Of a stretch of 64,000 bases of DNA, positions 13,761 to 37,496 are shown piece by piece. The position numbers were made by a program, and so were the translations under genes. This stretch comes from Candidatus Dojkabacteria bacterium. Its GTDB lineage: Bacteria; Patescibacteriota; Dojkabacteria; SC72. The notes under the pieces are model-generated. The model saw nothing but the letters and a program-made list of their open reading frames with translations. It was not told the DNA's origin and made no database searches. The stretch is from positions 230,244 to 294,243 of the forward strand of contig JACPFP010000002.1 in NCBI GenBank assembly GCA_016182915.1, in the 5' to 3' direction. Each line of letters starts with the position of its first letter. Within the stretch, counting starts at the first letter, position 1.

Positions 13761-13833
13761 GAAATTGAATTCATTTCTATTCAGTTTTTAATGTGCAAAC
13801 TAATTCTCAGTATTTCTATTTCTAGAAGTACTT

Positions 13834-13928: not shown

Positions 13929-14005
13929 TGGTGGGCGTACCAAGAATCGAACTTGGGACCTCAGTCTTATCAGGACTGCGCTCTAACCGACTGAGCTATA
14001 CGCCC
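13929..14005 (-). tRNA. tRNA-Ile (anticodon GAU), CCA encoded
   Basis: The reverse complement GGGCGTATAGCTCAGTCGGTTAGAGCGCAGTCCTGATAAGACTG...TTCGATTC...CGCCCACCA is a canonical spacer tRNA-Ile. Confidence 0.85.
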
Positions 14006-17821: not shown

Positions 17822-18207
17822 TTCTTTGAATAGTATTTAGAAGATTTTGTACTACCTGACTTAGATATAAGTCCTAGAGAGATCATATGGTTTAAGTCGC
17901 GTCTTAAGGTACGATCTGTAGTGTTTCTAACAACTTTCAGCATATCAGTTGTTGTTATACCATCACCTTTAGTTATTAGGGAGAGAATCTTACTCTGGCG
18001 CCCGTTTAGATCTTTATTTCCCTTCACTACATCCTTTTTAACCGTTTTTCTCTTAACGAGCTTCGTAACAACCTTTGGCATATCCTCTTCGAGCTCAGGC
18101 TCTACCTCCCCCCTCTTCTTCCTGTTGGAAAGGTATAGGTATAGACCGACACCAAGTAGTCCAAGAACAAGTAATCCATTACCACCTGACTCCTTCTTCT
18201 TCTCCAT
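17818..18207 (-). CDS. small membrane-anchored winged-helix (DeoR-like HTH) protein
   Basis: N-terminal TM segment (LLVLGLLGVGLYLYL), a K-rich linker, then the HTH-like GRQSKILSLITKGDGITTTDMLKVVRNTTDRTLRRDLNHMISLGLI. Translationally coupled between polA and the ligase. Confidence 0.4.
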   Translation of the reverse strand: MEKKKESGGNGLLVLGLLGVGLYLYLSNRKKRGEVEPELEEDMPKVVTKLVKRKTVKKDVVKGNKDLNGRQSKILSLITKGDGITTTDMLKVVRNTTDRTLRRDLNHMISLGLISKSGSTKSSKYYSKK

Positions 18208-18208
18208 C

Positions 18209-20896
18209 CTATTTCAACATACTAATATTATTACCTTCAGAGATATGTACGTCTAAAGGCACACTTAATTGTACAGCATTAACCATTATATCTCTAACTT
18301 CATCGGCAAACTTCTTTGATAAATCGGCACTAACTTCAAATATGAACTCATCGTGAACCTGCAAAAGTAGATAGGCCTTCTCTAAGTACTTCTCCTCTAT
18401 AAGTTTGTCGATTTTAATCATAGCAATCTTCATAATATCTGCCTCACCACCCTGAATTGGCATATTAACAGCCTCCCTTAAAGCTGCATTTCTGACATTG
18501 AAATTGCGAGATGTTAATCCCCCTATGAACCGAGTTCTTCCAAACATTGACTGAACATAACCATACATTGCCGCATTAGCAGAAGCCACGTCAATATATT
18601 TTTTCACACCACTATATGTCTCAAAGTATTCAACAATATATTTCTGAGCTATATCCCTATCTACATTCATCATACTGGAGAGGCCAAACTGAGTCTGACC
18701 GAAAAGGATAGCGAAATTAATAGTTTTCCCAAGACTTCTCTCCTGAGATGTAACATCCTTCTCCTCTTTTTTAAGTATCCTTGCCGCAGTGGATCTATGA
18801 ATATCTCTATCCTTTCTAAAGTCCTCCATTAGCACCTTGTCTTGGGATATATCTGCCATAACCCTGAATTCAATCTGGGAGTAGTCTGCGCCTACAAAGA
18901 TAAATCCTTTACGCGGGATAAAGGCCTTACGAATAGCCTCTCCCCACTCTCCTCTAACTGGAATATTTTGCATATTAGGATTGACAGAGGCAAAACGGCC
19001 GGAAGATGCCCCCATCTGCTTAAAATCGGTATGAATCTCATCAACCCCATTACTCTTAACCAACTCCAAATATGGCAATACATAAGTATTCAGCACCTTT
19101 GAGAGTTCCCTATACTTGAGAATCTTCTCTATCGCAGGATGCGCATCTTTCATCTGCAAAAGCACCTCTTCTTTTGTTGAGCGTGACCTACGTTTTCCTA
19201 AAGTATCGGGAATTCCCAATTCGTTATATATAACGCCCGAAAGCTGTTTAGGTGAGTTCAGGTTTACCTCATGCCCAATATCTTTATATATATCTTCTCT
19301 AACATCATTAATTAACTCCTTTATCTTCTCACTCAAATCCGACAATTCCTCTCTATCGACCGCAATACCTCTTTTTTCCATTTTAGAAAGGATTACAGAT
19401 ACAGGCATTTCGATATTTCTAATTACATCATATACATCATTCACCTTAACTTTTAATGATTTTGAGGCCTTTTCTAATGACCCAACAACATATTTAGACA
19501 GCTCAATCTCCCCAACTTTCTTCTTAATGGCAGGAACGAGATTAAGAAGTGCTTCACCAATCCTTCCATAATCCAAAGGCGAAGATTTAAATGAAAGGTA
19601 GTCAAAAAGGACGGTCTCTAATGAATAGTCTTTACTTCCAGAGGATGTATTGTATGAAAGAAGCTGTAAATCAACAAAATTCAGTTCATGAAGTTTTTCA
19701 ATAAGTTTTACTCCTAATTGTGAAACCCCTTCCTCCCACCCCCAGAAATAGGTTTCACAGGCACCTATCCTATCTACACTAGTTGCGAGGAAGTTATCCA
19801 CAAAAATCTTGTTCACAAAAAGTTCTCCAGAGTTATCCACAACCGAAACTAGGAGGTATTCCTTATCGATAGGCAACAGTACCAGTCGAATTGCCTTTTC
19901 TAGCAACTTTTCTAATGATTCGATCTCCCTCACTACCCTTCCCGCCTCTACTTCCTTTGTACTATTGAACATATCTAACTGAGGCTCGAAAGTTTCTAGT
20001 CCATTTATAGACTTTGGTATCTTAGCGATGAGAGACCTAAATTCAAACTTTCTGAAAACGTCCAGAAGCTCCTGCTCATTAAAATCAAGCAATAGGCAGT
20101 CTTCTAATTGAAGAGAAATATCGACATCCCTTTTGATTGTGGCAAGGTCCTTGCTGAAGTATGCCTGCTCTACACCCTCTGTTAGTTTCTTCTGATATCT
20201 AGGCTCAACCTCATTAATATTTTTATAGAGGTTATCTAAAGAACCATATTTCATAAGCAGGCCAAGAGCCGTTTTATCCCCCACTCCCTTCACTCCAGGG
20301 ATATTGTCTGAAGCATCCCCTACAATAGCTTTATAATCCGTCACCTGCTCGGGATAGTATCCGTAGCGTTCTACAACTTTCTCCCTATCATGCACAATAA
20401 TGTTGCCAAAGGAGCTCCCAGGAAGGCATACATATATATTCTTATCTACTAGCTGCAATAGATCCCTATCCCCGGTTATGATATACATATCCAAGTTAGC
20501 TGATGCCCACCTTCCACCATTCACCCAAGCACTCAGTGTCCCAAGAAGATCATCTGCTTCAAAACCGTCTCGTTCTATATATGGGATATTAAAAGCATTT
20601 AAGACCTCTTTAACAAGCGGAAATTGAGCATTCAAGGACTCATCCGTTGGCTTACGATGTGCTTTATAATCTGTGAACTGTGTGTGCCGAAAGGTCTTCG
20701 CACCTGTATCAAATGTACATACTACATATTTAGGATCAAACTGCTTAAGAGCCTGCAGAAGCATCGTTGTGAAGCCATATACCGCGTTGTCTTGAATTCC
20801 AGATGTAGTTGTAAGGGAGGAAGGGTATGCGTGGAACGCTCTATGAACTATAGCATTACCATCAATTGCGATTAGTAGGTCTTTTTTATCAGTCAT
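18209..20896 (-). CDS. polA: DNA polymerase I
   Basis: 895 aa. N-terminal 5'-3' exonuclease/FEN domain, a central domain, and C-terminal polymerase family A motifs (DYSQIEFRV, motif A; QVHDEF, motif C). Confidence 0.9.
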   Translation of the reverse strand: MTDKKDLLIAIDGNAIVHRAFHAYPSSLTTTSGIQDNAVYGFTTMLLQALKQFDPKYVVCTFDTGAKTFRHTQFTDYKAHRKPTDESLNAQFPLVKEVLNAFNIPYIERDGFEADDLLGTLSAWVNGGRWASANLDMYIITGDRDLLQLVDKNIYVCLPGSSFGNIIVHDREKVVERYGYYPEQVTDYKAIVGDASDNIPGVKGVGDKTALGLLMKYGSLDNLYKNINEVEPRYQKKLTEGVEQAYFSKDLATIKRDVDISLQLEDCLLLDFNEQELLDVFRKFEFRSLIAKIPKSINGLETFEPQLDMFNSTKEVEAGRVVREIESLEKLLEKAIRLVLLPIDKEYLLVSVVDNSGELFVNKIFVDNFLATSVDRIGACETYFWGWEEGVSQLGVKLIEKLHELNFVDLQLLSYNTSSGSKDYSLETVLFDYLSFKSSPLDYGRIGEALLNLVPAIKKKVGEIELSKYVVGSLEKASKSLKVKVNDVYDVIRNIEMPVSVILSKMEKRGIAVDREELSDLSEKIKELINDVREDIYKDIGHEVNLNSPKQLSGVIYNELGIPDTLGKRRSRSTKEEVLLQMKDAHPAIEKILKYRELSKVLNTYVLPYLELVKSNGVDEIHTDFKQMGASSGRFASVNPNMQNIPVRGEWGEAIRKAFIPRKGFIFVGADYSQIEFRVMADISQDKVLMEDFRKDRDIHRSTAARILKKEEKDVTSQERSLGKTINFAILFGQTQFGLSSMMNVDRDIAQKYIVEYFETYSGVKKYIDVASANAAMYGYVQSMFGRTRFIGGLTSRNFNVRNAALREAVNMPIQGGEADIMKIAMIKIDKLIEEKYLEKAYLLLQVHDEFIFEVSADLSKKFADEVRDIMVNAVQLSVPLDVHISEGNNISMLK

Positions 20897-20941
20897 GCCC
20901 TATTATATCCTAAAGTGCAGACTAATTACCAAGAGAATCTT

Positions 20942-22819
20942 CTATTCAAAAATAGCATTAAACTCATCTTTTCCTACCTCTTCCTGTGCTAGCAGCATAG
21001 TTACAAGCTTCTCAACCTTATCTTTATTATCTTTAAGAATCTTACGGGCAGAAGCCATAGCGTTTTCCATAATCCCCTTTATTTCAGCATCTATCAATTC
21101 TGAGGTTTTTTCACTGTAGTCTCTACCCCCACCATATGAATAACCAAGATGAGTTGTTTCCTCTGCATCCCCATACTGTACAAACCCTAGTTTATCGCTC
21201 ATCCCCCACTGTCTAACCATCATTTTTGCAATTCTTGTCGCAGACTTTATATCCCCAGATGCCCCGGAGCTAATATCCCCAACAAACAACTCCTCAGCAA
21301 TACGACCTCCAACAGCAGTCTGAATACTTGCAAGAAGTTTACCTTTTGTTTCAAGGCTTCTATCATCTTCAGGAATAAATACAGTAACACCACCAGAACC
21401 GCCCCTAGAAACCATAGATACCAATTCTACAGGCGAAGAATCTTTTGTAAATTTGGCCACTACTGCGTGCCCCGCCTCATGGTATGCAACTACTTTCAAG
21501 TCCTCATCAACCCTCTTTCCTTTCTTCTGTCTACCAAACCCAACCTTCAAATATGACTGCATTAGATCGTCCTGAGATATTACCTTACGTCCTGAAACGG
21601 CAGCCATAATAGCGGCTTCATTTAGAACGTTCTCAAGGTCAGCCCCAGAATATCCGATTGTTTTCTTTGAGAGAGTTTCTAATTTAACATCATCACCAAA
21701 CTTTTTCCCCTTAGCATGAACTTTCAGTATAGCCAATCTCTCATTGTAGTCTGGAAGATATAGCGTTACAGTACGGTCAAATCTTCCAGGCCTTAGAATT
21801 GCAGGATCAAGTACATCAGGCCTGTTTGTAGCGGCAATAACTATAACATTCTCTCTCTCTTCTAAGCCATCCATCTCAACAAGAATCTGGTTAAGGGTCT
21901 GCTCACCAGCACCAGAGTGAAGAACGGTACCTCTCTTCTTTGCAACAGCATCTATCTCATCTATAAAAATGATGGAAGGCGAAGACCTTTTTGCCTTTAA
22001 GAAAAGGTCTCTAACTCTAGAAGCACCTGCTCCAACAAGCATCTCTTCAAATTCCGATCCAGAGGTATGAAAGAATGGTACCCCAGCTTCCCCAGCAACA
22101 GCCTTCGCAAGAAGTGTTTTACCAGTTCCAGGCGCTCCCGCAAGAAGAACTCCTCTAGGAATTCTAGCGCCTATTTCAGTATATTTCTTAGGATTCTTTA
22201 GGAAGTCTACAATCTCTATTAACTCCTCTTTAACCTCTTCAATCCCTGCAACACTATCAAATGTAATCCCGGTCTTCTTACCAAAAAGCATTCTCGCCTT
22301 ACTCTGACCAAAATCCATTAATCTACCACCTTGGGAGTTCATACCCTTGATAAGGTTGTACATAAGGACAAGACCAAGGGCGAGAAGTACTAGCCAAACA
22401 ATATCTGTAATTGAAATACCAACTGCTGGCTGGTAGAAATCATTCTTTAAAGATTTAATATCAACTCCTGCATCAGAAAGCGTTGAGTAGAAGTCAGTTC
22501 CTGGAGGAACGAGGGCAAACTTCCTGCTTAATGACCTTACCTCTTTGCCATCTACCTTCTCTGTTTTCTGTTGTTCAATTATTACAATATTATCTTTAAG
22601 GATTAATTTTTTATACTCCCCTTTAGAAATACTATTCACAACATTACTTAGAGAGACCTCTCTACCCTTAGTTTGAGCATTAAGAAGGAAACTCCAGGCA
22701 GAAAATAGGACAATGGTAAGGAGAATACTCCCTACTATCCCCCACATATTTACCTTAACAATCTTTGTTGGAAGTTTTCTTATATCAGCTCTTTTCTCCA
22801 CATTTTCATTTGCACCCAT
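20942..22819 (-). CDS. ftsH: ATP-dependent zinc metalloprotease FtsH
   Basis: N-terminal TM helices, AAA module ([13 protein letters not shown]), and M41 peptidase HEAGHAVV. Confidence 0.9.
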
Positions 22820-22859
22820 TTGAATATTTCTTAACCTAAATTTAATAGTTTCTTTAATA

Positions 22860-22933
22860 TGGTGACGACTGGAATCGAACCAGTGACCTTGGGTTTATGA
22901 ATCCCATGCTCTAACCGACTGAGCTACGTCACC
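22860..22933 (-). tRNA. tRNA-Met (elongator, anticodon CAU), no encoded CCA
   Basis: The reverse complement GGTGACGTAGCTCAGTCGGTTAGAGCA...TTCATAA loop...GGTTCGATTCC...GTCACCA has a G1-C72 pair and resembles elongator Met rather than initiator. Confidence 0.7.
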
Positions 22934-22992
22934 ACATATAACCTAAATACCACATAATTATACATTAGGAGAAGAGAGAATCAAAATAATCC

Positions 22993-23556
22993 TTAGTTTG
23001 AAACTCTTCCTGTGTACGTACCAGTATCAGTATTGATAATCACCACATCACCCTGTTTAACAAACATAGGTACATTTACTTTATACCCTGTCTCTAAAAC
23101 AACCTCTTTAAGAGCATTTGTTGCTGTATTTCCTTTAACCGCATCACTAGCTTCTATGACAGTTAACTCAACAGATCCTTTTCTTCTTATATCAATAACT
23201 TTTCCATCAACAAGAAGTACGAGAGTCTTCTCCCCTTCTTTTAAATACTGCTTGTAGTCAGATATCGCCGTAATTGGAACCTCAACCGTTTCAAAGGAGG
23301 TTGTATCCATGAAATAGGCATTTATATTATCCGCATATAGATATTGAACCTCTTTCGTCTCCGTTTCCACCTCTTCTACCCTAGTTCCAGATTTAACAGT
23401 GATCTCCTGGTTATTCCCAGACTCTACACCTTTGAGTTTCAAAATAATGAGACCACCCTGTCTTCCCTGGGTTTTAAGCTGCCTATCTAAAACAAAATAT
23501 ATTTTACCGTCAATTCTAAGATATGAGTTTTTTCTTGGCGAATCTGTTAGTGCCAT
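22993..23556 (-). CDS. efp: translation elongation factor P
   Basis: MALTD...YLRIDGKIYFV...KLKGVESG...QYLY...FMD..TFE and a C-terminal VNVPMFVKQGDVVIINTDTGTYTGR. The track ORF start at 23613 would overlap tRNA-fMet, so I chose the internal Met at 23556. Confidence 0.8.
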   Translation of the reverse strand: MALTDSPRKNSYLRIDGKIYFVLDRQLKTQGRQGGLIILKLKGVESGNNQEITVKSGTRVEEVETETKEVQYLYADNINAYFMDTTSFETVEVPITAISDYKQYLKEGEKTLVLLVDGKVIDIRRKGSVELTVIEASDAVKGNTATNALKEVVLETGYKVNVPMFVKQGDVVIINTDTGTYTGRVSN

Positions 23557-23586
23557 AAAATAGTTAAACAAAAAGTTAATGAGATT

Positions 23587-23661
23587 TGGTTGCGGGGGTT
23601 GGACTCGAACCAACGGCCTTCAGGTTATGAGCCTGACGAGCTGCCTCTGCTCTACCCCGCG
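23587..23661 (-). tRNA. initiator tRNA-fMet (anticodon CAU)
   Basis: The reverse complement CGCGGGGTAGAGCAG...TCAGGCTCATAACCTGA...GGTTCGAGTCCAACCCCCGCAACCA shows a C1xA72 mismatch and an anticodon stem close to E. coli tRNA-fMet. End coordinates are accurate to about +/-2 nt. Confidence 0.75.
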
Positions 23662-23731
23662 TTAGCAAAGGCCATTATAGACGAAGGGAGGCAGAAAATC
23701 AATCTACATAACTTGATTATGGGAACTTAGA

Positions 23732-24184
23732 CTAGTTATATCCCGTTAGGAATTTAGCCCACTGAACATAGACTGGATCAGGAGTCTCACTCTCCTTTGT
23801 TGCCAGTATCCTATCTACTTCTTCGCTTCCAATACTAATAGACTCGTCAGGGATTACAAATACCGTTTCATCCTTCTTTGCTAGGTTTAACCTATCTCTA
23901 GACTCCGTTTCAATATAGTCTGCTGTCTCGACCTCTTCTCTGCTAAGGATTAGGGAGATATTCTTCAACCTTAATCCGTCAACCTCTACCTCTGCCTGTT
24001 TTAAAATAGCAATTTTCTTTACAGTTAGGTCTGCAGATTTAGCAATGTTATACATAAGAAAGAGAGAAAGAACTAGAAGTAAAGCATTACCTATTTTAAT
24101 AAAGAAAGACCTTCTCCCTTGCCCATCAATATCTTTAGGCTTATTCAACACTTTAAAAAGAATCTTTTTGCTATTATCATCCAT
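23732..24184 (-). CDS. small bitopic membrane protein, possibly FtsL/DivIC/FtsB-like
   Basis: One TM helix (ALLLVLSLFLMYNI) followed by a short coiled-coil-like region and an acidic tail. The assignment rests on architecture only. Confidence 0.3.
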   Translation of the reverse strand: MDDNSKKILFKVLNKPKDIDGQGRRSFFIKIGNALLLVLSLFLMYNIAKSADLTVKKIAILKQAEVEVDGLRLKNISLILSREEVETADYIETESRDRLNLAKKDETVFVIPDESISIGSEEVDRILATKESETPDPVYVQWAKFLTGYN

Positions 24185-24310
24185 ATATTTAGCTTATCAA
24201 ACTCAAAATATTTATCAACCCCTTGATAGACATTATTGACCCCTATATGAGCCAGTGTTATAATCCCTATAGTAGTGCCCCAAAGGATACGTAAATTTAG
24301 AGACACACGA

Positions 24311-25201
24311 ATGAATGCAGTCAAAAACAATGAATTCTCACAGCTTCACAAAGCCTTCACAGACGAATTAAGACAGAAGAGCAGATCTGAATCTACAGTC
24401 ATAGCATATGCTAAAGACATAGAACAACTTCTCAACTTCTTTACATCTAGAGGTTTAGATTCTATTAAGAAGTCTGGTATTGAGGACTTAGAGTCATATA
24501 AAGCGTATCTACAAGGCAATAACTACACTCCTAAGAGTATCTCAAGAAAGATAAACAGTACAAGAACATTCTTTAGATTCCTTCTAGAATCAAGCATTAT
24601 TCAGGAGAACCCTTCAGACAAACTCTCACACCCTAAGTTTGAAATAAAACCACCTAGAGTTCTAACAGAGATGGAATATAGAGCGCTTAGAGATGTAAGT
24701 AGGGTTGATATAAGACTATATTCAATCATTGAACTCCTTTTACAGACAGGAATTAGAATCGGTGAGTTAGCGGCTTTAACTCTAGAAGATGTAAGAACCT
24801 CAGCAGATAGCAAGATTCCATACCTATACATTAAAGCTGCAGGGAGCCACCCAGCAAGAAAAGTTCCTCTAAATAAGTCCGCAGCAGCAGCAATAGAAGA
24901 ATATAAGAGGATTAGACCAGAAAGTGAAGACGAGACCCTATTTATAACCAAAAATGGTAGACCTCTTCTTGTTAGAAACATTAGAACAACAATAGATAAG
25001 GCATTTGAGAAGTCAGGAATTAAGAATGCGAAGGTAAATGACCTAAGAAATACATTTATTGCTCATCATCTAGCTAACGGAGTATCACTTGTAACCGTTT
25101 CTAAGCTCGTTGGACACAAGAGACTCTCTACAACAGAGAAATACCTAAATCTTCTTAATAATAAGCAGGAAGACCAGGAAAAGGACCTCAAGGAGCTTTA
25201 G
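24311..25201 (+). CDS. tyrosine site-specific recombinase, XerC/XerD-like (alternative start at 24275)
   Basis: N-terminal SAM-like core-binding domain and a C-terminal catalytic domain with conserved R...H..R and LGH...T.KYL (catalytic Tyr context). Confidence 0.75.
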   Translation: MNAVKNNEFSQLHKAFTDELRQKSRSESTVIAYAKDIEQLLNFFTSRGLDSIKKSGIEDLESYKAYLQGNNYTPKSISRKINSTRTFFRFLLESSIIQENPSDKLSHPKFEIKPPRVLTEMEYRALRDVSRVDIRLYSIIELLLQTGIRIGELAALTLEDVRTSADSKIPYLYIKAAGSHPARKVPLNKSAAAAIEEYKRIRPESEDETLFITKNGRPLLVRNIRTTIDKAFEKSGIKNAKVNDLRNTFIAHHLANGVSLVTVSKLVGHKRLSTTEKYLNLLNNKQEDQEKDLKEL

Positions 25202-26106
25202 TATTGGTATATAATTAGAGTCTTCTCTTTATCAACCCAATTTTCACCTTTAAACCTCTCTCTAACTTTTACGTTCATCTCATGTGAGAAATCAAATGTG
25301 GGTTTATAGTTATCCAACATCCATTTAGTAATTTCATCATTATCAAGGATTGGGATCATTCCATCCGTAAATAAGAGGATTCGATCCCCTGCCTCCAGAT
25401 CGACGACATGACTTTGAAAGAACTGTGTTGCCCTCTTATCACCATTAAAAATGCCAAATCCCACTTTATTTCCGGCTTCATCTTTCACATTAGGATTATT
25501 TCTTAAGACTGTACACCAGTAAATCTCCCAGTCGTGTTCAGTAATCACTTTTTTTCTTATATCATCAGGTATCTGAGCTAGGAAGATATCCTTTCCAATA
25601 AGGGTATTAGCATGCTTAAGAGCCTTCATAATCTGATACTTCATGGGATTTACTTGTTCTAACGATCCCTTGCGTAAAACATTTACATAGCAATCTTCTA
25701 ACCCACCATAGTACAATTTACCTTCAAAAATAAAGGCTCCAAATCCTACTGTTTCAGGAGTGTCGTAATTTAGGGGGTCGACAGGGTCCCTATCAAGTTT
25801 ACCGTTGAAACTGGCAATATCCTGATTTATCTTCTCAAGTATCTCGTTTACAGTTCCCTCTCCCACCTTTTTCTCAAAAATATACTCTTTAGCGTACTTA
25901 ATAAAGCCAGCACAGAATATCTCTGCCACCTCACTCTCATAGTCTTCAAAAGGAAATGTTCTTACCGCTCTAGTATGCCCTCTTAACACACCATCTGCCA
26001 CGGCAAAGATATGTAAGTCACTGTCAATGGCCCATGCGTCCCCGCTTGGAAGAAAAGATGCTTCATTTGAGGGGTTATCATGATATACAAAAATTCCTTT
26101 ATTCAT
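25198..26106 (-). CDS. PP2C/SpoIIE-like protein phosphatase (tentative)
   Basis: The motifs FAVADGV and RILLFTDGMIP resemble PP2C metal-binding motifs (xxDGHGG and xxSDGL). Confidence 0.4.
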   Translation of the reverse strand: MNKGIFVYHDNPSNEASFLPSGDAWAIDSDLHIFAVADGVLRGHTRAVRTFPFEDYESEVAEIFCAGFIKYAKEYIFEKKVGEGTVNEILEKINQDIASFNGKLDRDPVDPLNYDTPETVGFGAFIFEGKLYYGGLEDCYVNVLRKGSLEQVNPMKYQIMKALKHANTLIGKDIFLAQIPDDIRKKVITEHDWEIYWCTVLRNNPNVKDEAGNKVGFGIFNGDKRATQFFQSHVVDLEAGDRILLFTDGMIPILDNDEITKWMLDNYKPTFDFSHEMNVKVRERFKGENWVDKEKTLIIYQY

Positions 26107-26116
26107 TGTCTATGTT

Positions 26117-26527
26117 TTACTTAGAAATACCAAGCCCTACCCTGCTACGCCTAGCTTCTGCTTGAATCCAGTAATCTGAAATTCCATCCCCTATTTCAAG
26201 TAGGGTTTGAGCAAAAAGAGTCTCAGGGTGAGATTCAAGGAACGCTATATGAAGGAGCATTGCAATATTGCGCCTAGTGATATCACTTAACCCGCTAAGG
26301 TAGGCTTTAACTAATTCCTCTGCAGGGATCATATTCTGAGCAGGACTAACCTTAAGAGCCTCGACATGTAAACAGACTCTATCCTCAGTTTCTCCACTAT
26401 GTTTCGAAAAAGAAACTGCATTAGTAACAGCTGCACCTGTTTTCATCCCAACAGTTACTCGGCCACTTGCTTCATCATCCCAGCAGACAAACCCTCCATC
26501 ACTAATCTCTGCAAAAGTATCTGGCAT
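26117..26527 (-). CDS. hypothetical protein (136 aa)
   Basis: ORF packed between tRNA-Ile(UAU) and the PP2C-like gene. I recognise no motif. Confidence 0.35.
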   Translation of the reverse strand: MPDTFAEISDGGFVCWDDEASGRVTVGMKTGAAVTNAVSFSKHSGETEDRVCLHVEALKVSPAQNMIPAEELVKAYLSGLSDITRRNIAMLLHIAFLESHPETLFAQTLLEIGDGISDYWIQAEARRSRVGLGISK

Positions 26528-26548
26528 ATTTATATTTAATAATTACAA

Positions 26549-26625
26549 TGGTGGGGGTGGGCGGACTCGAACCGCCGACATCGGCTTTATAAGAACCGCG
26601 CTCTAACCACCTGAGCTACACCCCC
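26549..26625 (-). tRNA. tRNA-Ile with anticodon UAU (decodes AUA)
   Basis: The reverse complement is GGGGGTGTAGCTCAGGTGGTTAGAGCGCGGTTCTTATAAAGCCGATGTCGGCGGTTCGAGTCCGCCCACCCCCACCA. The D-arm is identical to classic tRNA-Ile. The anticodon loop is CTTATAA, so positions 34-36 are TAT. Confidence 0.75.
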
Positions 26626-26692
26626 AGATATGCGTATTCTATCAGAAGTGCAGCAATTTTTCACTATTCTAAAGATATTTTCTACAGAAATA

Positions 26693-29233
26693 CTACCTAA
26701 GAGTCAGAGGAGGTGTTCCACTCTGGTTATCAGCCAAAGAACCCTCTGTAACAGCCAATCCTGCTCTTTGATTTATCTCCTGTTCAACAACATTCACATC
26801 TCTACCATATTTCAGCCTCGACAACTCCCTAATCTTTTGGGACATCTCTTTATTTACTGGAAGGTCAAAACCAGATTCAGGATAGCTGGGACCGTAGGAA
26901 GAGTCCAAAGAGAAAGGAGCTGGATATTTACCCCCTGAGATAAGCTTCACATACCAATGTAGGTTGGCCTGATTCATAATATCGTTCGCCGTAAAGACAG
27001 GATCAAACTGTGACTCCAAGAATTTAGCATCTTCGGGACCGGTTCTTGCTATGAGAAGTGTACCAACATTTCCGAAGATAGAGTTCTTGATATGCTCCTC
27101 CATCTGCGCAATATACTGGTTCGCGACAGTGAGGTTAAGACGGTATTTTCTTGCCTCAGAAAGAATAGAAGCAAATTCTTCTGTAGCGAAGTTCTGAAAC
27201 TCATCTACATAAAAGAAGAAATCCTTTCTCTCTTCTTCAGGAATATCCTCACGGCTCAAGGCAGCAGCAACAAGCTTAGGAATGAGGATTGTCCCGAGGA
27301 ACTGCATGTTTTCCTCCCCTACCAGACCCTTAGAAAGATTTACTATCAATATCTTCTTATTATCCATAACTTCCCTCATGTTGAATGAAGATTGAGATTG
27401 CCCAATAATATTCCTAACGGCAAGGTTGGTTACAAACCTATCGAACTTTGAGGTTAGATAGCCGAGAGTCTCTGATTTATGAAAATCACTTGTTTTTGCA
27501 ATTTGGTCCGTCCAAAACCTCTTAACCATGTCATCCTTAATCAGTGGAATCCACTTCTCATCAACCCACTTCTGATCTGTAATAATCCTTAATACCTCAA
27601 CAAGGGTGGAACCTTTCTCAGACATGGCGGTAAGCATTGCATTACGAACCGTTCTTTCAAGGATAGGGCCAACAATACCCTGGTTATGGGGATCGAAGAT
27701 CTTCTTAAGAAGACCTATAAACCCGTTTACAATTCTATGCTTATCCTGCTCGTCCGAAAACTCCATCATGTTAAAACCGAAAGGCCTTTGATTATCGGAT
27801 ACATCGAAATATATAACATCCTCAGCTCTTTCATGAGGGATACGATCAAGGACCATCTGAGCAGTCTGTCCGTGAGGATCAATGAAACAAACTCCATCGC
27901 CGTTATATATATCTTGAAGGATCATCCTTACAAGAAGCCATGACTTACCTGAACCTGTCTGTCCTAATACATAGGCATGTCTTCTTCTATCGTCTCTTTG
28001 GAAACATATTCTCTTTCTATTGCCTCTAAAAACATTATCACCTAACCATATAGTGTCCTTAGAGTTTACATCTGAACTAATCCAGTTTGCAGCTGGTGCC
28101 TCTTTAGCAAGAAGCCAGTTAATATTAGGTGTTGTGATCTCTTTATTTGGAAGGTGAAAGAGACTCGCAAGCTCATCGATATTTAGGATAGATCCGCTCT
28201 TTAAAGGCATTCTTCTATAGATAACATCATTCATGAAATCCCTACCCTTGAGCTTGTTCAACTTCTCTTTTTTAAATTCATTAATACCTGGATTGGAGAA
28301 CTGATCAAAAGCACCTACGATATTATTTAGATGCATATTAGCCAAATCTGAGTCCGAAGCAGATGTAACTATACGAATAGCGGTCCTAAACCCTATCTTA
28401 GACGTTTTCTTGCTTATTGCTTGCAACTGTTCCTGACTTACACTAATTCTCTTCTTCTCTGGGTCGGAGTTCGATTCTTCAACCTTCTGTACAAACTTCC
28501 TACCGTTTTTCTGCCATTTACTCCCCGCAGGAGAGATAACCAACTGGATAAGGGCACCTTCTCCATCCTCCATTTTACTTAAGGTACTCAAAATATTTGA
28601 GAGAGGATCTCCAGAAAAGTCTTCCGCTACTTTAACCGGATAGTATGGCTCATCTGTCTGGACCAGGCTTGCATATGCAACCTTGGAATTCTCACCGAAG
28701 ATATTATATTCATCCGTCCTTATAATTTCAGCCTCCTGATAGGAGCCTAATATCTGTTTCTCAACTAGGTCAGCTAGTTTCTTAGGAGCATATACATAGA
28801 ATCGAATCTCACCCGGAAGCCCAACCATCTCAAAACTAATACTATTTCCAACGGTCAGATATTTTTGAATACCCTTCCCTGCGCCACCGATTCCATATAG
28901 GTTCGCAAACATCTTTTCCGCGACTCCAACCTCTAACTCATTCCCCCTGGGGGCTCTAACCTCAATTAATACTCCAAGTTTGCTTTTTTCATCCCTGTCT
29001 TTTCTTTTTAAAATATTTGAATAGTAGTAGAGGGCGCCAATAATTCCTCCAATAAGGAGGGAAATTAGAAGAACCCACATAAAGACAGATACAAATGTGA
29101 TATTAGAACCATCCGTCTCCCCAAGAGAATCCTGTGGATAGACCACATTCTCCCCTGGTGTTACATCACCAGGTTGTATAGGGCCAATAGTCTGAGAGTA
29201 AACAAGATTAGTATAATCTAGAGCAGTTCGCAT
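26693..29233 (-). CDS. membrane-anchored P-loop ATPase of the HerA/FtsK/VirB4/VirD4 (AAA_10/TraG-D_C-like) superfamily
   Basis: 846 aa. A single N-terminal TM helix, a ~350-aa non-ATPase region, Walker A LGQTGSGKS, then DPHGQ, Walker B FFFYVDEFQNF, and an ARKYRLNLTVANQ motif typical of HerA/VirB4/FtsK-type translocases. Confidence 0.65.
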   Translation of the reverse strand: MRTALDYTNLVYSQTIGPIQPGDVTPGENVVYPQDSLGETDGSNITFVSVFMWVLLISLLIGGIIGALYYYSNILKRKDRDEKSKLGVLIEVRAPRGNELEVGVAEKMFANLYGIGGAGKGIQKYLTVGNSISFEMVGLPGEIRFYVYAPKKLADLVEKQILGSYQEAEIIRTDEYNIFGENSKVAYASLVQTDEPYYPVKVAEDFSGDPLSNILSTLSKMEDGEGALIQLVISPAGSKWQKNGRKFVQKVEESNSDPEKKRISVSQEQLQAISKKTSKIGFRTAIRIVTSASDSDLANMHLNNIVGAFDQFSNPGINEFKKEKLNKLKGRDFMNDVIYRRMPLKSGSILNIDELASLFHLPNKEITTPNINWLLAKEAPAANWISSDVNSKDTIWLGDNVFRGNRKRICFQRDDRRRHAYVLGQTGSGKSWLLVRMILQDIYNGDGVCFIDPHGQTAQMVLDRIPHERAEDVIYFDVSDNQRPFGFNMMEFSDEQDKHRIVNGFIGLLKKIFDPHNQGIVGPILERTVRNAMLTAMSEKGSTLVEVLRIITDQKWVDEKWIPLIKDDMVKRFWTDQIAKTSDFHKSETLGYLTSKFDRFVTNLAVRNIIGQSQSSFNMREVMDNKKILIVNLSKGLVGEENMQFLGTILIPKLVAAALSREDIPEEERKDFFFYVDEFQNFATEEFASILSEARKYRLNLTVANQYIAQMEEHIKNSIFGNVGTLLIARTGPEDAKFLESQFDPVFTANDIMNQANLHWYVKLISGGKYPAPFSLDSSYGPSYPESGFDLPVNKEMSQKIRELSRLKYGRDVNVVEQEINQRAGLAVTEGSLADNQSGTPPLTLR

Positions 29234-29286
29234 AGAGTATCGATTAGATTTATTGATAAAAGGATATCACAAAAAACGTACTCTTT

Positions 29287-29889
29287 CTATTCTCCGAAGA
29301 TAGCAAAGATCTTCTTAATAAGAGTTGCAGCCCATGTTCGACCGTCGTTAATATCTCCCTGCTCAGAAATATTACTTGCGTCATTGGTAAGGGCATCATC
29401 TACCTGATAACCAAATAGCTTGAAAGTTTGGGTATTAGCAGTGGTTGCATTCTCCTCTTCAACACGAGATTTCTCCTCTGCACTAAGTTTATTGCCATCC
29501 TCAACCCCACTTTCAGTAAGTTTAATCTCATTCTCTTTCACAGTCTCAACCAGAGTTGCAAACTCCTCACTCTCCTTACTTGCATTAACCTGCTCCTCAA
29601 CCTTTGGAGCATCAACTAAAGGTGCAGATGAAACCTCGGAAGATACCTCCAGGGAAGGTAGCTCATCTAAAGACTCAACAGGCTGTTCTGCAGTTGGCTG
29701 ATTGGAATTATATTTTTCTAATATACCATTCTGCCTAAGTATCTCTTTTTTCTGATCTAAGGATAGTGTTGACCATACTGAGTCGGGAATTAGTCCAACG
29801 AGCTCGGTAGGTAAAGTGCGAATCCAGCCTGCATTTTCTAAGGCCGCACTCTTTGTTTCTAGGTTGTTTACTACAGGGGTATCTTGCAT
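29287..29889 (-). CDS. hypothetical acidic protein (200 aa)
   Basis: Low-complexity, E/S-rich middle region with no recognisable motif. Tightly packed between smpB and the ATPase. Confidence 0.35.
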   Translation of the reverse strand: MQDTPVVNNLETKSAALENAGWIRTLPTELVGLIPDSVWSTLSLDQKKEILRQNGILEKYNSNQPTAEQPVESLDELPSLEVSSEVSSAPLVDAPKVEEQVNASKESEEFATLVETVKENEIKLTESGVEDGNKLSAEEKSRVEEENATTANTQTFKLFGYQVDDALTNDASNISEQGDINDGRTWAATLIKKIFAIFGE

Positions 29890-29894
29890 ACCGA

Positions 29895-30338
29895 CTATTT
29901 TACCATATACTTTAATCTGTCTCTATGAAGCTCCCGATCCAGTTGTCTCTCCTTCTCTGTATTTCTCTTCTCCCTATCCTTCTTTCCCCTTCCTATACCA
30001 ACTAACACTTTTGCTTTTCCATGTGAAAAATACATCTTTAGGGGTACTAGGGTTCCTCCCCACTGCTTCGATTTACTATTTAACTGATAGAGTTCCTTTG
30101 TGTGCACAAGCAGTTTACGGGTTCTCTTGGCGTCATACTTAGGATCATTACTGAATTTGAACTTAGCAATATCTGCATTAACAAGCCATAGTTCGGAGCC
30201 AATAACTTTCACAAAAGAATCCTTTAAATCCACTCTATTATCCCTAATTGACTTGACCTCTGCTCCAGTTAGAACAATACCCGCCTCAAGGGTATCTTTG
30301 ATATCATAATTGAATTTTGCTTTTCTGTTATCAACCAT
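29895..30338 (-). CDS. smpB: SsrA-binding protein SmpB
   Basis: Whole-length match to SmpB: KFNYDI...LEAGIVLTGAEVKS...ELWL...I..F.......YD..R.RKLL.HK.E. Confidence 0.9.
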   Translation of the reverse strand: MVDNRKAKFNYDIKDTLEAGIVLTGAEVKSIRDNRVDLKDSFVKVIGSELWLVNADIAKFKFSNDPKYDAKRTRKLLVHTKELYQLNSKSKQWGGTLVPLKMYFSHGKAKVLVGIGRGKKDREKRNTEKERQLDRELHRDRLKYMVK

Positions 30339-30353
30339 GCCGGAATTATACCA

Positions 30354-32693
30354 TTACTTTTGAATAACGACTCTCCTGATAACGGTTCCATCCAAAATAT
30401 ACATATATCTCTCCTGATAGTCGGTAACTAGGTCCTGAACATCTTTAAAAACATCATCCCTATCTCCCTGATAGCGATACTCATTAACACGAAGGAGTTC
30501 ATTTGGATGTCTCGAATCCCCGATTGCCTCCTTAGGCTTCTCGAAAGATATGATTCTTGGAGAATCTCCACCTTCAAATATATACATAAGGTTATCCAAA
30601 GTTCCTCCTGTATGTCCTGCACTTGCACCACCTACAGCATTCAAACCCTCTGCACTAAGTGGGAGTTTTTGAGGATTATCTCCTGCGGAGTATCTTTCCA
30701 CCTCATTATCAACTCCCGTTACTACATAAATAGCAATATCACCGAAGAAATCTCTAGCTGAGTCAAAAGTTTCAGAACTTATATGGGCAAAAGGTAGTGT
30801 GTATCCGTTACCTGTGAAGTTTGATCTATATATTGCCTTGTTTGTGGGACTTAATAGGTATACATGATCATTCGGTGTGAATACCGCAAACTCGGAGACA
30901 TCATTAATTCCAAGGTCATCTGCCCCAAGTCCAGTAAGAGACTCAAAGTCCAGGTTTCCCAACTTACTATCAAACTGTGATCTGATCACTCCTGAAATTT
31001 CATCAAAGACATAAACACCATGAGTACCTATATCAATATATTTGGGTGACTTCACCAATCCCCTCTTGTCAGGAATCTTAACTGCACTCTTATCGAAAAT
31101 ATTTATTCTATATACAGCTTTCAATCCATTATCAACCACAAAGAGGGACTCATTCTGATAGTCGTCCTTGTAGACAGTCATATCCGTAGGCTGAGATTTC
31201 GACTCACCCTTTTTATCAAACTCAATACGTGTACTTAAAAATATCTCCAGGTTACCATTTTCTTCAGAAACCCAAACTCTCTTTGCAACTCTATCATCAA
31301 TTTTCCCTAACGATTCCTTAAGATCTGAGAGTTTCTTTTGGTCATCAAAGGATAACTTTTTACCCTCTACTTTTTGTAACTCTGCTGTCGCCTGTGTAAG
31401 GTAGCCGGAAGCCTGCTCTGTGTCACCCGGAAGATATGACTCAGCCTGTTTAATATAGTTCTCTACAACATCAAATACCTCAGCGGCAACTCTATGAAGC
31501 TCTCTAGCCTCTTTTGCTTTAATACTGAGCTGGATTCCCCCTAGAAGCGCTATCACGAGAAGCACCCCTAAAATCAAGGTTCCAAACCTCTTCCCTCGCA
31601 CTGAAGACTCTCTGTATCCATCAATTTTCATTCCGTACGCGGAACTACCTTTAGAGAGCCTCATTGCAGATAACTTTGACTTTATCCTTTTATACCAAAC
31701 TTGCCTACCATATTTATCATCTACAAATCCCCAGAAGGATCCTCCGAACTTGTGTAGAATCTTCTCTAACCTACTACTTAAAGGCATCATGAAGTTTGAA
31801 AGTTTATTCCATATCTCTAACCATGCGCTTTTTATCTTACCGGTCGTGCTGTTAAACCATATTACAAAAGTTGCCCACTTCTCTTTGAAAGTACTCTTCC
31901 GTACCTCAGATTCAATTTCTTTATTCTCAGGAACAGAAGGAACTTCCTCTGGTGGTTGAATTATTTCATACTCCTTATGAATAAGCTCTGTTGCTTGAGA
32001 CGTTACCTCAGAATCATACCCAGGTTCAGGATCTAAAGGGGCCTCTTCAATCTCTTCTATATCTTCAAAATCCTCTCCAATCTCCGACCTTGAAAGGAGG
32101 AGAACCCCTTGCCCTTTTTTCAAGGTATCATTTATCTCTAACAAGACTGATGATAGTTCGTCGCCCTTCATTCGTAGAAGAGTCTCACTGAATAGCATTG
32201 GAGAAGATATTATCAGGATGTCTTCCTGGCCCAATGCAAAACTTAATGCCATTACTTTATTCTTCTTTAGTACCTCAGACACATTAACGATATCTCCCTC
32301 CTTATGTACAAAGATCTCCTGTTCTCCAAAAACTCCTAAGAATGCGGTAGCTTCTTTTATCACCACTATGGCAAAACTTATATCAATTCCACCCTCCTCT
32401 ACCTCTTTATCGTTTTTCAACATTTCAAGAAGCTTCTTTGAACCTGCCGATATAGATTCTTTGACAGAATCAATAATAGAGCCCGATGAACCTGAGTACG
32501 TTTCAAGGATTGCATCCCAGACAAACTTAGATGCACGACTGGCATACCCTTCTGGGGTTTTAGAGACTGTAATTAGTGCATACATCTCTCCAACAGAGTT
32601 CCCTCCGTAATTTTCAGGAGTATATTTATAAACACTCGTTATAGACTGAGTATCTACCTCTTGTGAGATATATCTCTTTACAAAGATGGGCAT
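30354..32693 (-). CDS. large bitopic membrane protein: ~370-aa cytoplasmic N-terminal region, one TM, ~400-aa extracytoplasmic C-terminal domain
   Basis: A single central TM helix (TLILGVLLVIALLGGIQLSI). An acidic linker precedes it. The C-terminal half is rich in predicted beta strands. No catalytic motif recognised. Confidence 0.45.
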   Translation of the reverse strand: MPIFVKRYISQEVDTQSITSVYKYTPENYGGNSVGEMYALITVSKTPEGYASRASKFVWDAILETYSGSSGSIIDSVKESISAGSKKLLEMLKNDKEVEEGGIDISFAIVVIKEATAFLGVFGEQEIFVHKEGDIVNVSEVLKKNKVMALSFALGQEDILIISSPMLFSETLLRMKGDELSSVLLEINDTLKKGQGVLLLSRSEIGEDFEDIEEIEEAPLDPEPGYDSEVTSQATELIHKEYEIIQPPEEVPSVPENKEIESEVRKSTFKEKWATFVIWFNSTTGKIKSAWLEIWNKLSNFMMPLSSRLEKILHKFGGSFWGFVDDKYGRQVWYKRIKSKLSAMRLSKGSSAYGMKIDGYRESSVRGKRFGTLILGVLLVIALLGGIQLSIKAKEARELHRVAAEVFDVVENYIKQAESYLPGDTEQASGYLTQATAELQKVEGKKLSFDDQKKLSDLKESLGKIDDRVAKRVWVSEENGNLEIFLSTRIEFDKKGESKSQPTDMTVYKDDYQNESLFVVDNGLKAVYRINIFDKSAVKIPDKRGLVKSPKYIDIGTHGVYVFDEISGVIRSQFDSKLGNLDFESLTGLGADDLGINDVSEFAVFTPNDHVYLLSPTNKAIYRSNFTGNGYTLPFAHISSETFDSARDFFGDIAIYVVTGVDNEVERYSAGDNPQKLPLSAEGLNAVGGASAGHTGGTLDNLMYIFEGGDSPRIISFEKPKEAIGDSRHPNELLRVNEYRYQGDRDDVFKDVQDLVTDYQERYMYILDGTVIRRVVIQK

Positions 32694-32694
32694 T

Positions 32695-32946
32695 TTAACC
32701 TACAAGAATTAATATTACACAGAAAAGACTCCCTACAACCGCAACAAGAAGGTGTAGATATGATGCAAAAAGAACCTTTTTATTCGATGAGCTTTTAACT
32801 GTGTCATTTAAAATTCTCACTCTAATGGTGAGAAGGAGGGAGTATATTACATAGCCAAAAATTACAACTAGGAAGAGAAGTTTGAAGATACCTCCTGTAC
32901 TCTGAAACGTGAAATTGATTGTGTTTATTCCTTCTAAAAAGTCCAT
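32695..32946 (-). CDS. small two-TM membrane protein
   Basis: 83 aa with two hydrophobic helices. Start and stop are coupled to flanking genes (32946 is shared with the upstream bPH gene). Confidence 0.35.
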   Translation of the reverse strand: MDFLEGINTINFTFQSTGGIFKLLFLVVIFGYVIYSLLLTIRVRILNDTVKSSSNKKVLFASYLHLLVAVVGSLFCVILILVG

Positions 32947-33563
32947 TATATGTGTCCTTTCTTTTTCATTTCAAGTAAGTCGAGGAGAGTATCCTGTATA
33001 TCCCTTGGCCTTGGTACACCTGTAAATTCAAACTCCGGCTTTGAACCCGCGGTCTGGATATATACATCTCCATAGTCAAAAATACTACTTAATACTCCAG
33101 CAGGTGAATGCGATACATCCTCAATTTTATCCAAGTGGGCTTCTGAGAATCTATGAAAAAGAATATTATTAAAATCTACATCAACTATCCTGATATCCGT
33201 AATTATATTTACGGAATAGTACCATTTAAAATATGTATCACATGCTACAGTAAATGCCAGTAGAAGAAACAACAACCCAACTCCAAAGTTATATATAGGA
33301 CTGAAATCTCCTGTACCGCTGAATGCAGCAAAGAAGAGAAGTGGAGTTAAGAGAAGTCCGATAATAGCTAGATACCTTGGGATGAAAACTGCAGGGTGCT
33401 TCCTAACAATCAATACTACACTCTCTCCTTTATCCTGACCACTAAACGAAACAGTATCAGGAAACACACAGAAACTACCTGTGTTGTTTATAGAGTCAAC
33501 AGGAGACAGCTTTACTAGAAAAGACTTTTTCCCTTTTAAAAACTTTTTAGGTATTTTTCTCAT
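32946..33563 (-). CDS. membrane protein with a bacterial PH (bPH_2, YdbS/YdbT-like) domain
   Basis: Two N-terminal TM helices, then a ~90-aa domain with a bPH_2-like pattern (...YSVNIITDIRIVDVDF...GDVYIQTAG). Confidence 0.5.
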   Translation of the reverse strand: MRKIPKKFLKGKKSFLVKLSPVDSINNTGSFCVFPDTVSFSGQDKGESVVLIVRKHPAVFIPRYLAIIGLLLTPLLFFAAFSGTGDFSPIYNFGVGLLFLLLAFTVACDTYFKWYYSVNIITDIRIVDVDFNNILFHRFSEAHLDKIEDVSHSPAGVLSSIFDYGDVYIQTAGSKPEFEFTGVPRPRDIQDTLLDLLEMKKKGHI

Positions 33564-33674
33564 ACTAGTTCAAGATAACATAAATACAGTACTAGGACAA
33601 GAATAATTAGGTTGCATATCTTAATAGTAGTGATATACTTTTTAACATAATAATTTTATATATAAGACACTCAA

Positions 33675-34106
33675 ATGCTAGATGTACAAGAAAAAAGACG
33701 AATCACTGATGCCCTCGTACACCTCACAGATAGTCATACCACAGAACCTCTATCTTTAGGCGAAGACGAAGAGATATCAGGCCTTAAAATATCAAACTTC
33801 AGACAAGGGTTTGAGTCAGCAACATCAGAAAGTATCACTATACTTATGGAACTAATAGTGGAAGGTGGTAGCCAAGAGAGGCAGTATGCTGAGGAAAAGG
33901 ACTTACAAAGACTATGCGGGTTTATATGTGGGCTAAGATTTAGAGGAAATACCTATTTGGCAGACGAAATTTGGGGAAGGCTCAATCAAAGCGGAGCACT
34001 TGACGCTGATCAGGACGCAGCCGAAGCAAGTGTAGTTCAAATAGTGTTCGAGGAATATTTACAAGAGCAAGGAATACTGGCTAAAGAAGTCTGCAATCTT
34101 TGGTAA
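33675..34106 (+). CDS. hypothetical acidic protein (143 aa). This is the only plus-strand gene in this block.
   Basis: The ORF is convergent with the SpoIID-like gene. No motif recognised. Confidence 0.3.
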   Translation: MLDVQEKRRITDALVHLTDSHTTEPLSLGEDEEISGLKISNFRQGFESATSESITILMELIVEGGSQERQYAEEKDLQRLCGFICGLRFRGNTYLADEIWGRLNQSGALDADQDAAEASVVQIVFEEYLQEQGILAKEVCNLW

Positions 34107-36350: not shown

Positions 36351-36352
36351 AT

Positions 36353-36625: not shown

Positions 36626-36682
36626 AAGGTACGAGATAATATAAAAAAGGCAGGAGCGAACTCCTGCCTTCCAAAGTCTTAA

Positions 36683-37051: not shown

Positions 37052-37142
37052 TGTTATTTAAGAGTAATTAAATTAATAGCTTATAACTACGGACATTATA
37101 TTATATGTGAAATCAATCTGCAATAGGATAAACACCAAATAT

Positions 37143-37478: not shown

Positions 37479-37496
37479 ATGTATTTATAAAATAGT

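Follow-up and report, generated by a model that had tools for sequence, protein, structure and literature searches.

The tRNA-Ile(UAU) gene

The window, that is the whole stretch of DNA that was analysed, comprises 64,000 nucleotides (nt) of contig JACPFP010000002.1 (positions 230,244 to 294,243) from a bacterium of Candidatus Dojkabacteria (candidate division WS6), a class of the Candidate Phyla Radiation (CPR, also called Patescibacteria). On its minus strand, at 26549..26625, lies a tRNA gene of 77 nt with an encoded CCA end and the anticodon UAU (TAT in the DNA), which is proposed to decode AUA. The gene folds into a cloverleaf, AUA is a very frequent isoleucine codon of this organism, and the tRNA is conserved together with its neighbourhood across the class. 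It is likely that the gene specifies a functional, chromosomally inherited tRNA-Ile(UAU) that serves as the AUA reader in place of the lysidine system.

How cells tell AUA from AUG is a classic question in the study of the genetic code. The accepted view has been that bacteria answer it almost universally by means of lysidine, and TilS is regarded as an essential, near-universal bacterial enzyme and a phylogenetic marker.

ARAGORN finds six tRNA genes in the window. The tRNA-Ile with the anticodon tat occupies 26549-26625 on the minus strand, exactly the coordinates of the original prediction, which was made from the sequence before the present analysis and did not state the strand. For the Rfam tRNA model (RF00005), the match at 26552-26625 (-) scores 67.5 bits (E=1.5e-12), well above the gathering score of 29. 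Read 5' to 3' on the minus strand, the sequence is GGGGGTGTAGCTCAGGTGGTTAGAGCGCGGTTCTTATAAAGCCGATGTCGGCGGTTCGAGTCCGCCCACCCCCACCA. The acceptor stem is GGGGGUG/CACCCCC, the D stem GCUC/GAGC, the anticodon stem CGGUU/AGCCG and the T stem GGCGG/CCGCC; the variable loop has 5 nt, and all 21 of the 21 cloverleaf pairs are formed. The anticodon loop of 7 nt is CUUAUAA (C32 U33 U34 A35 U36 A37 A38), and the 3' end consists of the discriminator A73 followed by the encoded CCA. The gene is continuous over its 77 nt and contains no intron, unlike genes of the eukaryotic or archaeal type. The canonical cloverleaf with a TAT anticodon, as originally predicted, is thus borne out by the ARAGORN call, the Rfam score and the complete pairing.

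In a minimum free energy (MFE) fold of the single sequence, the acceptor and D stems are recovered but the anticodon and T arms are not. Such incomplete folds are usual among tRNAs and carry no weight against a model-based call. The cloverleaf rests instead on the covariance model and on the compensatory changes in homologues: among 112 intact homologues, C32, A37, A38 and A73 are invariant and compensatory variation is found in all stems.

The isoleucine-type features of the original prediction are present as A73, A37, A38, U12-A23 and G3-C70. All of them are common to the organism's own tRNA-Ile(GAU), which was found by ARAGORN and Rfam at 13929..14005 (minus) in the spacer between the 16S and 23S rRNA genes and is predicted to decode AUU and AUC. 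Among the elements used by the isoleucyl-tRNA synthetase (IleRS) of E. coli, which are A73, A37/A38, U12-A23, C29-G41 and C4-G69, C29-G41 is replaced by G29-C41 in both tRNAs. A promoter-like site was located by a consensus scan at 26636..26664 (minus). It has a -35 element GTGAAA, a spacer of 17 nt and an extended -10 element TG-n-TAGAAT, and ends about 10 nt 5' of the tRNA.

The codon that this anticodon matches is abundant. Among 17,882 codons in 51 open reading frames (ORFs) of the window, AUA was counted 431 times, which corresponds to 24.1 per 1000 codons and to 33% of the isoleucine codons, and each of the 51 ORFs contains it. For comparison, the values quoted in a survey of 2025 (PMC12514573) are 4.9 per 1000 codons in E. 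coli and 39 in Borrelia.

Comparison with known tRNA-Ile(UAU) systems

The tRNA-Ile2(UAU) of Mycoplasma mobile is the characterised bacterial case. Its U34 is unmodified, the IleRS of M. mobile has a Trp-to-Arg change, and the ribosome rejects AUG (Taniguchi 2013, PMC3575796). The IleRS adaptation to U34 that marks this type is Arg or Lys at the site of the Trp of the Zn-binding domain, or else an enzyme of the eukaryotic type. The window gene resembles this tRNA, and those of the tilS-less Bifidobacterium and Neorickettsia, in being bacterial and intron-free, in its UAU anticodon, A37 and A73, in its predicted task of reading AUA and in the lack of tilS in its visible context. Bifidobacterium tRNAs were also among the matches to the strict search pattern described below. 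The difference from the M. mobile type is that the window tRNA is kept across an entire CPR class and in many CPR lineages, not in isolated species, and that AUA is here a major codon. The lineage is probably a large-scale case of the lysidine-free AUA decoding that was first described in M. mobile.

A laboratory precedent is provided by a suppressor of Bacillus subtilis that bypasses tilS, in which the anticodon of tRNA-Ile1 is changed from GAU to UAU (Fabret 2011; Koehrer 2014, PMC3919564). It shows that a UAU tRNA-Ile is able to replace lysidine-dependent AUA decoding in a bacterium. The suppressor is, however, a mutation of the major tRNA-Ile1, whereas the window gene is separate, anciently conserved and accompanied by an intact tRNA-Ile(GAU) in the rRNA operon. 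The tRNA-Ile(UAU) of eukaryotes and of DPANN archaea has the same anticodon and codon, but its gene bears an intron; in eukaryotes the anticodon is pseudouridine-A-pseudouridine. The window gene has no intron, a D arm of the bacterial type and an encoded CCA.

An unmodified U34 is expected to wobble onto AUG, which M. mobile avoids via ribosomal adaptation (PMC3575796), and with 24 AUA codons per 1000 the accuracy of reading matters. U34 of the window tRNA might carry a modification that restricts its pairing to A, such as the pseudouridine of the eukaryotic tRNA or another U34 derivative, which would concern the mechanism and not the identity of the gene. Such a modification is less likely than not: U34 is unmodified in M. 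mobile, the one bacterial case characterised, no gene for a U34-modifying enzyme is found in the window, and CPR genomes are reduced.

The lysidine system

The position immediately upstream of ftsH is occupied by tilS in many bacteria. The ftsH gene of the window (20942..22819, minus; NCBIfam TIGR01241, 673 bits) encodes a protein identical to MBI2356708.1 of Candidatus Dojkabacteria, and the slot upstream of it is taken up by tRNA-Met and efp, both in the window and in all Dojkabacteria-like loci among those fetched for comparison (designated L and a number). No ORF with a PP-loop lies within 10 kb of ftsH in the Dojkabacteria-like loci, nor is there one in the 16 UAU-bearing loci that include ftsH. 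As a control, ftsH loci were collected by a metagenome scan with the window FtsH; they belong to generic bacteria with 41-53% identity and not to relatives. A same-strand PP-loop ORF was present upstream of ftsH in 36 of these 80 unrelated loci, and the TilS-like ORFs among them are not obviously from CPR bacteria. In the 64-kb window itself, no match to PF01171/TilS was obtained among the ORFs scanned, and the PP-loop motif SGGxDS is absent from the ORFs of at least 80 amino acids. Neither the window nor any of the fetched loci contains an IleRS gene.

The second component of the lysidine system, tRNA-Ile2(CAU), can be told from the methionine tRNAs by the pair 3-70: G3, A3, C70 or T70 marks tRNA-Ile(CAT), and C3-G70 marks the elongator and initiator tRNA-Met (Silva 2006, PMC1635315). 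CAU tRNAs were numbered with T-loop anchoring and then classed by this pair. None of the 37 CAU tRNAs in UAU-bearing loci has the Ile2-type signature; some are initiators, with CGCGGGG or UGCGGGG, and the others resemble tRNA-Met, with C3-G70 or U3-A70. The control loci contain eight CAU tRNAs, of which one is Ile2-like. Both CAU tRNAs of the window were found by ARAGORN and Rfam and are kept in relatives, one being of the initiator type and one of the Met type. The initiator tRNA-fMet at 23587..23661 (minus) has the acceptor CGCGGGG...CCCCGCA with a C1xA72 mismatch. The elongator-type tRNA-Met at 22860..22933 (minus), directly upstream of ftsH, has the acceptor pairs U3-A70, G4-C69 and A5-U68 and no encoded CCA; by the 3-70 pair of Silva 2006 it is Met-like and not Ile2-like. 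The wobble base of tRNA-Ile(UAU) itself is T in the DNA of the window and of all Dojkabacteria relatives, and is therefore not the C34 of a TilS substrate.

A trio made up of two CAU tRNAs and one UAU tRNA is also present in other CPR classes, in some cases closely packed in tandem (L006, L027, L046, L054, L066, L095, L104 and L110). The absence of tilS from the window and from the ftsH slot, the absence of an Ile2-like CAU tRNA and the recurrence of this trio together point to a replacement of tRNA-Ile2(CAU) by the UAU tRNA. It is probable that both tilS and tRNA-Ile2(CAU) are absent from the whole genome.

The cultivated saccharibacterium Southlakia epibionticum ML1 is an example of the canonical system of tRNA-Ile2(CAU) and TilS. 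Its tilS gene, SEML1_0730, abuts ftsH (SEML1_0729) and is essential by transposon sequencing; a region of about 8 kb includes three genes annotated as "tRNA-Met" (CAU), of which one directly follows a DivIC gene, and a single tRNA-Ile is annotated in the genome (PMC10633639). The two systems have in common the task of reading AUA as isoleucine, a group of AUN-box tRNAs near DivIC and ftsH, and G3-C70. They differ in the wobble base, which is T and not C in the window gene, in the lack of a TilS gene in the window or upstream of ftsH, and in the tRNA set, which is two CAU and one UAU in the window neighbourhood and three CAU in Southlakia. It follows from the essential tilS of Southlakia that loss of this gene is no property of the whole CPR radiation.

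Several observations weigh against the proposal that tRNA-Ile(UAU) reads AUA in place of the lysidine system. The 64 kb in view are part of a larger genome, with a contig of at least 315 kb, and genes for tilS, IleRS and a third CAU tRNA could be located outside them. Lactobacillus casei, L. plantarum, Cyanothece and Ferrimonas have both tilS and tRNA-Ile(UAU) (PMC3575796), and Southlakia is a CPR bacterium that retains tilS as an essential gene (PMC10633639). The pair 4-69 of the window tRNA is G4-C69 and not C4-G69, the pair that serves as an identity element for the E. coli IleRS and that most members of the family have; because of this replacement, the local IleRS may read the acceptor stem differently from that of E. 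coli. AUA use in UAU-bearing loci is barely over the GC-matched expectation (+4.5 points, p=0.076), and an enrichment of AUA in UAU-bearing lineages was rejected as not significant, AUA use being mainly driven by GC content. Finally, promoter-like matches in the region are as many as expected from shuffled sequence, so that the promoter-like site is only suggestive.

Some of the same observations fit a redundant decoder, with tilS and tRNA-Ile2(CAU) located elsewhere in the genome and the UAU tRNA supplementing a lysidine-based reading of AUA. Coexistence of the two systems is documented in a few bacteria, and a transition state has been proposed for L. casei, Cyanothece and Ferrimonas (PMC3575796); the window, moreover, is about a fifth of its source contig. 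Redundancy is nevertheless unlikely. The ftsH-upstream slot is devoid of tilS in every Dojkabacteria-like locus and the CAU tRNAs near the UAU tRNAs are uniformly of the methionine or initiator kind. The UAU tRNA is kept across a class of small genomes, whereas the known cases of coexistence are sporadic, and AUA is far too frequent for a marginal decoder.

Conservation of the locus in Dojkabacteria

The gene order of the window is smpB, a hypothetical gene, the DUF8128 ATPase gene, tRNA-Ile(UAU), further hypothetical genes, xer, a DivIC-like gene, tRNA-fMet, efp, tRNA-Met, ftsH, polA, the DNA ligase gene and the rRNA operon. This order recurs in the WS6 genome GW2011_GWF2_39_15 (L204, L205), with an FtsH identity of 82%, in a 792-kb Dojkabacteria contig (L206), with 68%, and in the species-representative metagenome-assembled genomes (MAGs) L013, L029 and L098; it is partly preserved in L078, L099, L112 and L117. 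The anticodon arm, GCGCGGUUCUUAUAAAGCCG, is identical in these relatives, and the acceptor stems vary by paired changes (GGGGGUG/CACCCCC, GGGAAUA/UAUUCCC and GGGAGUA/UACUCCC). This pattern argues for a vertically inherited, chromosomal tRNA gene that is conserved across the class.

The gene next to the tRNA on the upstream side (26693..29233, minus) encodes a DUF8128 or VirD4-TraD-like ATPase, with weak NCBIfam matches to TraD/VirD4 and a match to Pfam PF26449; the protein is identical to MBI2356714.1 of Candidatus Dojkabacteria, and homologues adjoin tRNA-Ile(UAU) at 37-66% amino acid identity in many CPR loci. On the other side, a tyrosine recombinase of the XerC/D type (NCBIfam) is encoded on the plus strand at 24275..25201 and occupies the same position in relatives, with 70-77% amino acid identity. 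The DivIC-like septum formation initiator (23732..24184, minus; a weak match to Pfam PF04977, unmarked in relatives) lies immediately upstream of tRNA-fMet, and the same pairing is found in the gene table of Southlakia as SEML1_0740/0739.

A recombinase and a VirD4-like ATPase on the two sides of a tRNA, and one contig of the IMG/VR virus collection (L202) carrying a tRNA with the same anticodon arm, might suggest that a mobile element or phage brought in the tRNA or uses it for attachment, and that it is not part of the core translation set. This was rejected as very improbable. The recombinase, the ATPase and the tRNA keep their order among smpB, efp, ftsH and polA down to 62-68% FtsH identity, and thus belong to the conserved core; the XerC/D-type recombinase is a core gene of the neighbourhood and no marker of an integrated element. 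No direct, att-like repeat of the tRNA 3' end was found in the 14 kb from 20000 to 34000, GC content and skew are unremarkable at the tRNA, and the match in the viral collection is a single one, on a giant-virus MAG bin. The L202 contig, from the bin GVMAG-M-3300020194-44, has at 1901-1976 (-) a tRNA-Ile(UAU) with the Dojkabacteria anticodon arm beside a tRNA-Arg(UCU). Mis-binning of a CPR contig could account for this, as could a tRNA borne by a virus.

The meaning of the AUA codon

The meaning of AUA was examined in eight conserved window proteins, which were aligned with their homologues in all fetched loci, and the residue opposite each window codon was tallied. Opposite AUA stand isoleucine in 58%, leucine in 14%, valine in 13% and methionine in 2%, and the homologue codons at these sites are mostly ATC or ATT. 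In the same alignments, ATT stands opposite isoleucine in 42% and ATG opposite methionine in 34%. Since the residues opposite AUA are mostly isoleucine and rarely methionine, AUA is a frequent isoleucine codon in this organism and is not reassigned.

Reassignment of AUA, for example to methionine as in many mitochondria, or charging of the UAU tRNA with an amino acid other than isoleucine, is the least probable of the explanations considered and was rejected: a UAU anticodon alone leaves the amino acid unfixed, and the tRNA is without the C4-G69 pair used by the E. coli IleRS, but the AUA profile resembles the profiles of ATT and ATC and differs from the ATG profile, and the isoleucine-type positions are those of the organism's own tRNA-Ile(GAU). 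The expectation that the gene would be informative on lineage and decoding is justified, in that the organism is a CPR bacterium of Candidatus Dojkabacteria which reads AUA, at 24 per 1000 codons, as isoleucine.

Distribution of tRNA-Ile(UAU)

One genome per GTDB species was scanned with the strict pattern AGCTCAGNNGGTTAGAGCNNNNNNCTTATAA, which yielded loci in at least 120 species-level genomes. Among the matches listed, 69 are labelled as CPR by the record title, including Saccharibacteria, Peribacteria, Dojkabacteria, Parcubacteria, Magasanikbacteria, Komeilibacteria, Shapirobacteria, SR1 and others. The other matches listed are from 11 Ignavibacteria, two Dormibacterota, two Bifidobacterium (L073, L094), Similichlamydia and a few Firmicutes and Bacteroidota, apart from 14 bins labelled "Gammaproteobacteria" and two DPANN archaea. 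L006, one of the 14 Gammaproteobacteria-labelled MAGs, has synteny of the CPR type, with the DUF8128 ATPase, xer and the tRNA trio. The Gammaproteobacteria title is probably wrong for such records, that is for L006 and probably for others among L012-L120.

Earlier work had found nine bacterial species in three clades without tilS and with tRNA-Ile(TAT), and a few others with both (Taniguchi 2013, PMC3575796). The original prediction, by which such genes are confined to a handful of known lineages, is out of date on this point, since at least 120 species-representative genomes match, 69 of them CPR-labelled; tRNA-Ile(UAU) is widespread in CPR bacteria. As a kind, the tRNA is already known, and the window gene is an ordinary member of the wider CPR pattern. 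Within the library searched, no paper was found that ties CPR or Patescibacteria to lysidine, TilS or a UAU tRNA-Ile.

Two DPANN MAGs carry UAU-pattern tRNA genes with introns, namely L093 of Nanoanaerosalina (2873-3012, +) and L105 of Aenigmarchaeota (7850-7970, -), where the Rfam matches span 140 and 121 nt. On the evidence of these genes, AUA may be read by a UAU tRNA in ultra-small archaea as well. For the bacterial loci L040 and L072, an intron in the UAU tRNA was considered and rejected, the pattern matches there being 5' fragments beside intact tRNAs. In L072 the fragment, consisting of the D arm and anticodon loop of a tRNA-Ile(UAU), is at 5140-5170 (-), near an intact tRNA-Ile(UAU) at 4985-5059 (-); in L040 a fragment of the same kind is at 2236-2266 (+), near an intact tRNA. 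Both fragments lie about 80-100 nt upstream of the intact tRNAs and look like partial duplications.

Large class I synthetase genes were found beside the UAU tRNA in nine loci. They were considered as candidates for IleRS and rejected, as all are ValRS or LeuRS. The tRNA is within a few kb of valS in seven loci (L024, L038, L048, L081, L115, L118 and L120, one titled Falkowbacteria and the rest with uninformative or doubtful titles), and near leuS in the two Dormibacterota loci (L010, L031).

Proposed pathway of AUA decoding

A decoding pathway without lysidine can be postulated for this bacterium. The tRNA-Ile(UAU) would probably be transcribed from its own promoter-like site and would mature with the CCA end that is read in the gene. 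IleRS would charge it via A35, U36, A37 (presumably t6A), A38 and A73, and on the ribosome U34 would pair with the third-position A of AUA. The remaining codons of the box would be divided among other tRNAs of the window: the tRNA-Ile(GAU) of the rRNA operon would read AUU and AUC, and the two CAU tRNAs nearby, elongator and initiator, would read AUG. Misreading of AUG by U34 might be avoided via competition from tRNA-Met, via adaptation of the ribosome or of IleRS, or via modification of U34.

Extended to the radiation as a whole, the proposal would be that entire CPR classes, Dojkabacteria and many others, gave up TilS and lysidine, with AUA, a major codon at about 24 per 1000, read by a tRNA-Ile(UAU) that replaced tRNA-Ile2(CAU) beside tRNA-fMet and tRNA-Met, and that others, such as Southlakia, keep an essential TilS. 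For this wider proposal the case is evenly balanced.

Other features of the window

The rRNA operon of the window is complete, and its spacer contains tRNA-Ile(GAU) and tRNA-Ala(UGC). The match of the 23S rRNA gene at 10626-13762 (-) spans 3137 nt, compared with 2925 positions in the model, which indicates insertions of about 200 nt. rRNA insertions are often reported for CPR bacteria. In the elongator tRNA-Met of Dojkabacteria (window, L204, L206, L013, L029 and L098), the bottom of the anticodon stem shows an A31/A39 mismatch that is conserved, together with U32 and U3-A70. Among the window tRNAs whose 3' ends were read, the missing CCA sets tRNA-Met apart from tRNA-Ile(UAU), tRNA-Ile(GAU), tRNA-Ala and tRNA-fMet. 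The stretch around tRNA-Ile(UAU) is also present on a Logan contig of run SRR12113422.

Many ORFs of the window are without a family match. Those with a match include, besides the DUF8128/VirD4-like ATPase, four tandem paralogues of the type IV secretion system (T4SS) pilin (PF18895) at 36027-37850 (-) and an ATP-dependent DNA ligase of the archaeal and eukaryotic type at 16031-17821 (-). The pilins and the ATPase probably belong to the type IV secretion system of Patescibacteria described in PMC12102498. The ligase gene is just downstream of polA with one small ORF in between, an order kept in L204, L206 and L207. For an ORF of 2235 amino acids at 57178-63885 (-), the assembly index lists no exact copy.

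Of the stop codons in the 51 ORFs, 26 are TAA, 23 are TAG and two are TGA (ORFs 17818-18207, -, and 53844-54776, +). Recoding of TGA was rejected: both TGA stops look like real gene ends without a read-through frame, so that the pattern is a strong bias in stop codon use and not a recoding. The second of these ORFs belongs to a block of plus-strand genes at 49000-56500 in an otherwise minus-strand window, which comprises a protein with a 5-hmdU DNA kinase helical domain (PF18723; 53844-54776) as well as Nudix, GNAT and aldo-keto reductase genes. PF18723 is typical of phage thymidine hypermodification. The block may be an acquired island, because the GC skew is weaker there.

Implications

A tRNA-Ile(UAU) that is conserved throughout a class and recurrent in CPR bacteria, and whose codon is present in every gene counted, suggests that lysidine-free decoding may be common in much of bacterial diversity and not a curiosity of a few parasites. 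This affects annotation and those estimates of genome completeness that use tilS as a marker, and the tRNA also offers a simple signature of lineage. If the wider proposal is true, no other lysidine-free clade of bacteria would come near these CPR bacteria in size, and they would have unrecognised adaptations of IleRS, the ribosome or the chemistry of U34 that keep AUG from being misread; adaptations of IleRS, the ribosome or tRNA modification are worth seeking in cultivable CPR bacteria. It would also bear on the proposal that a UAU tRNA was the ancestral reader of AUA (Taniguchi 2013).

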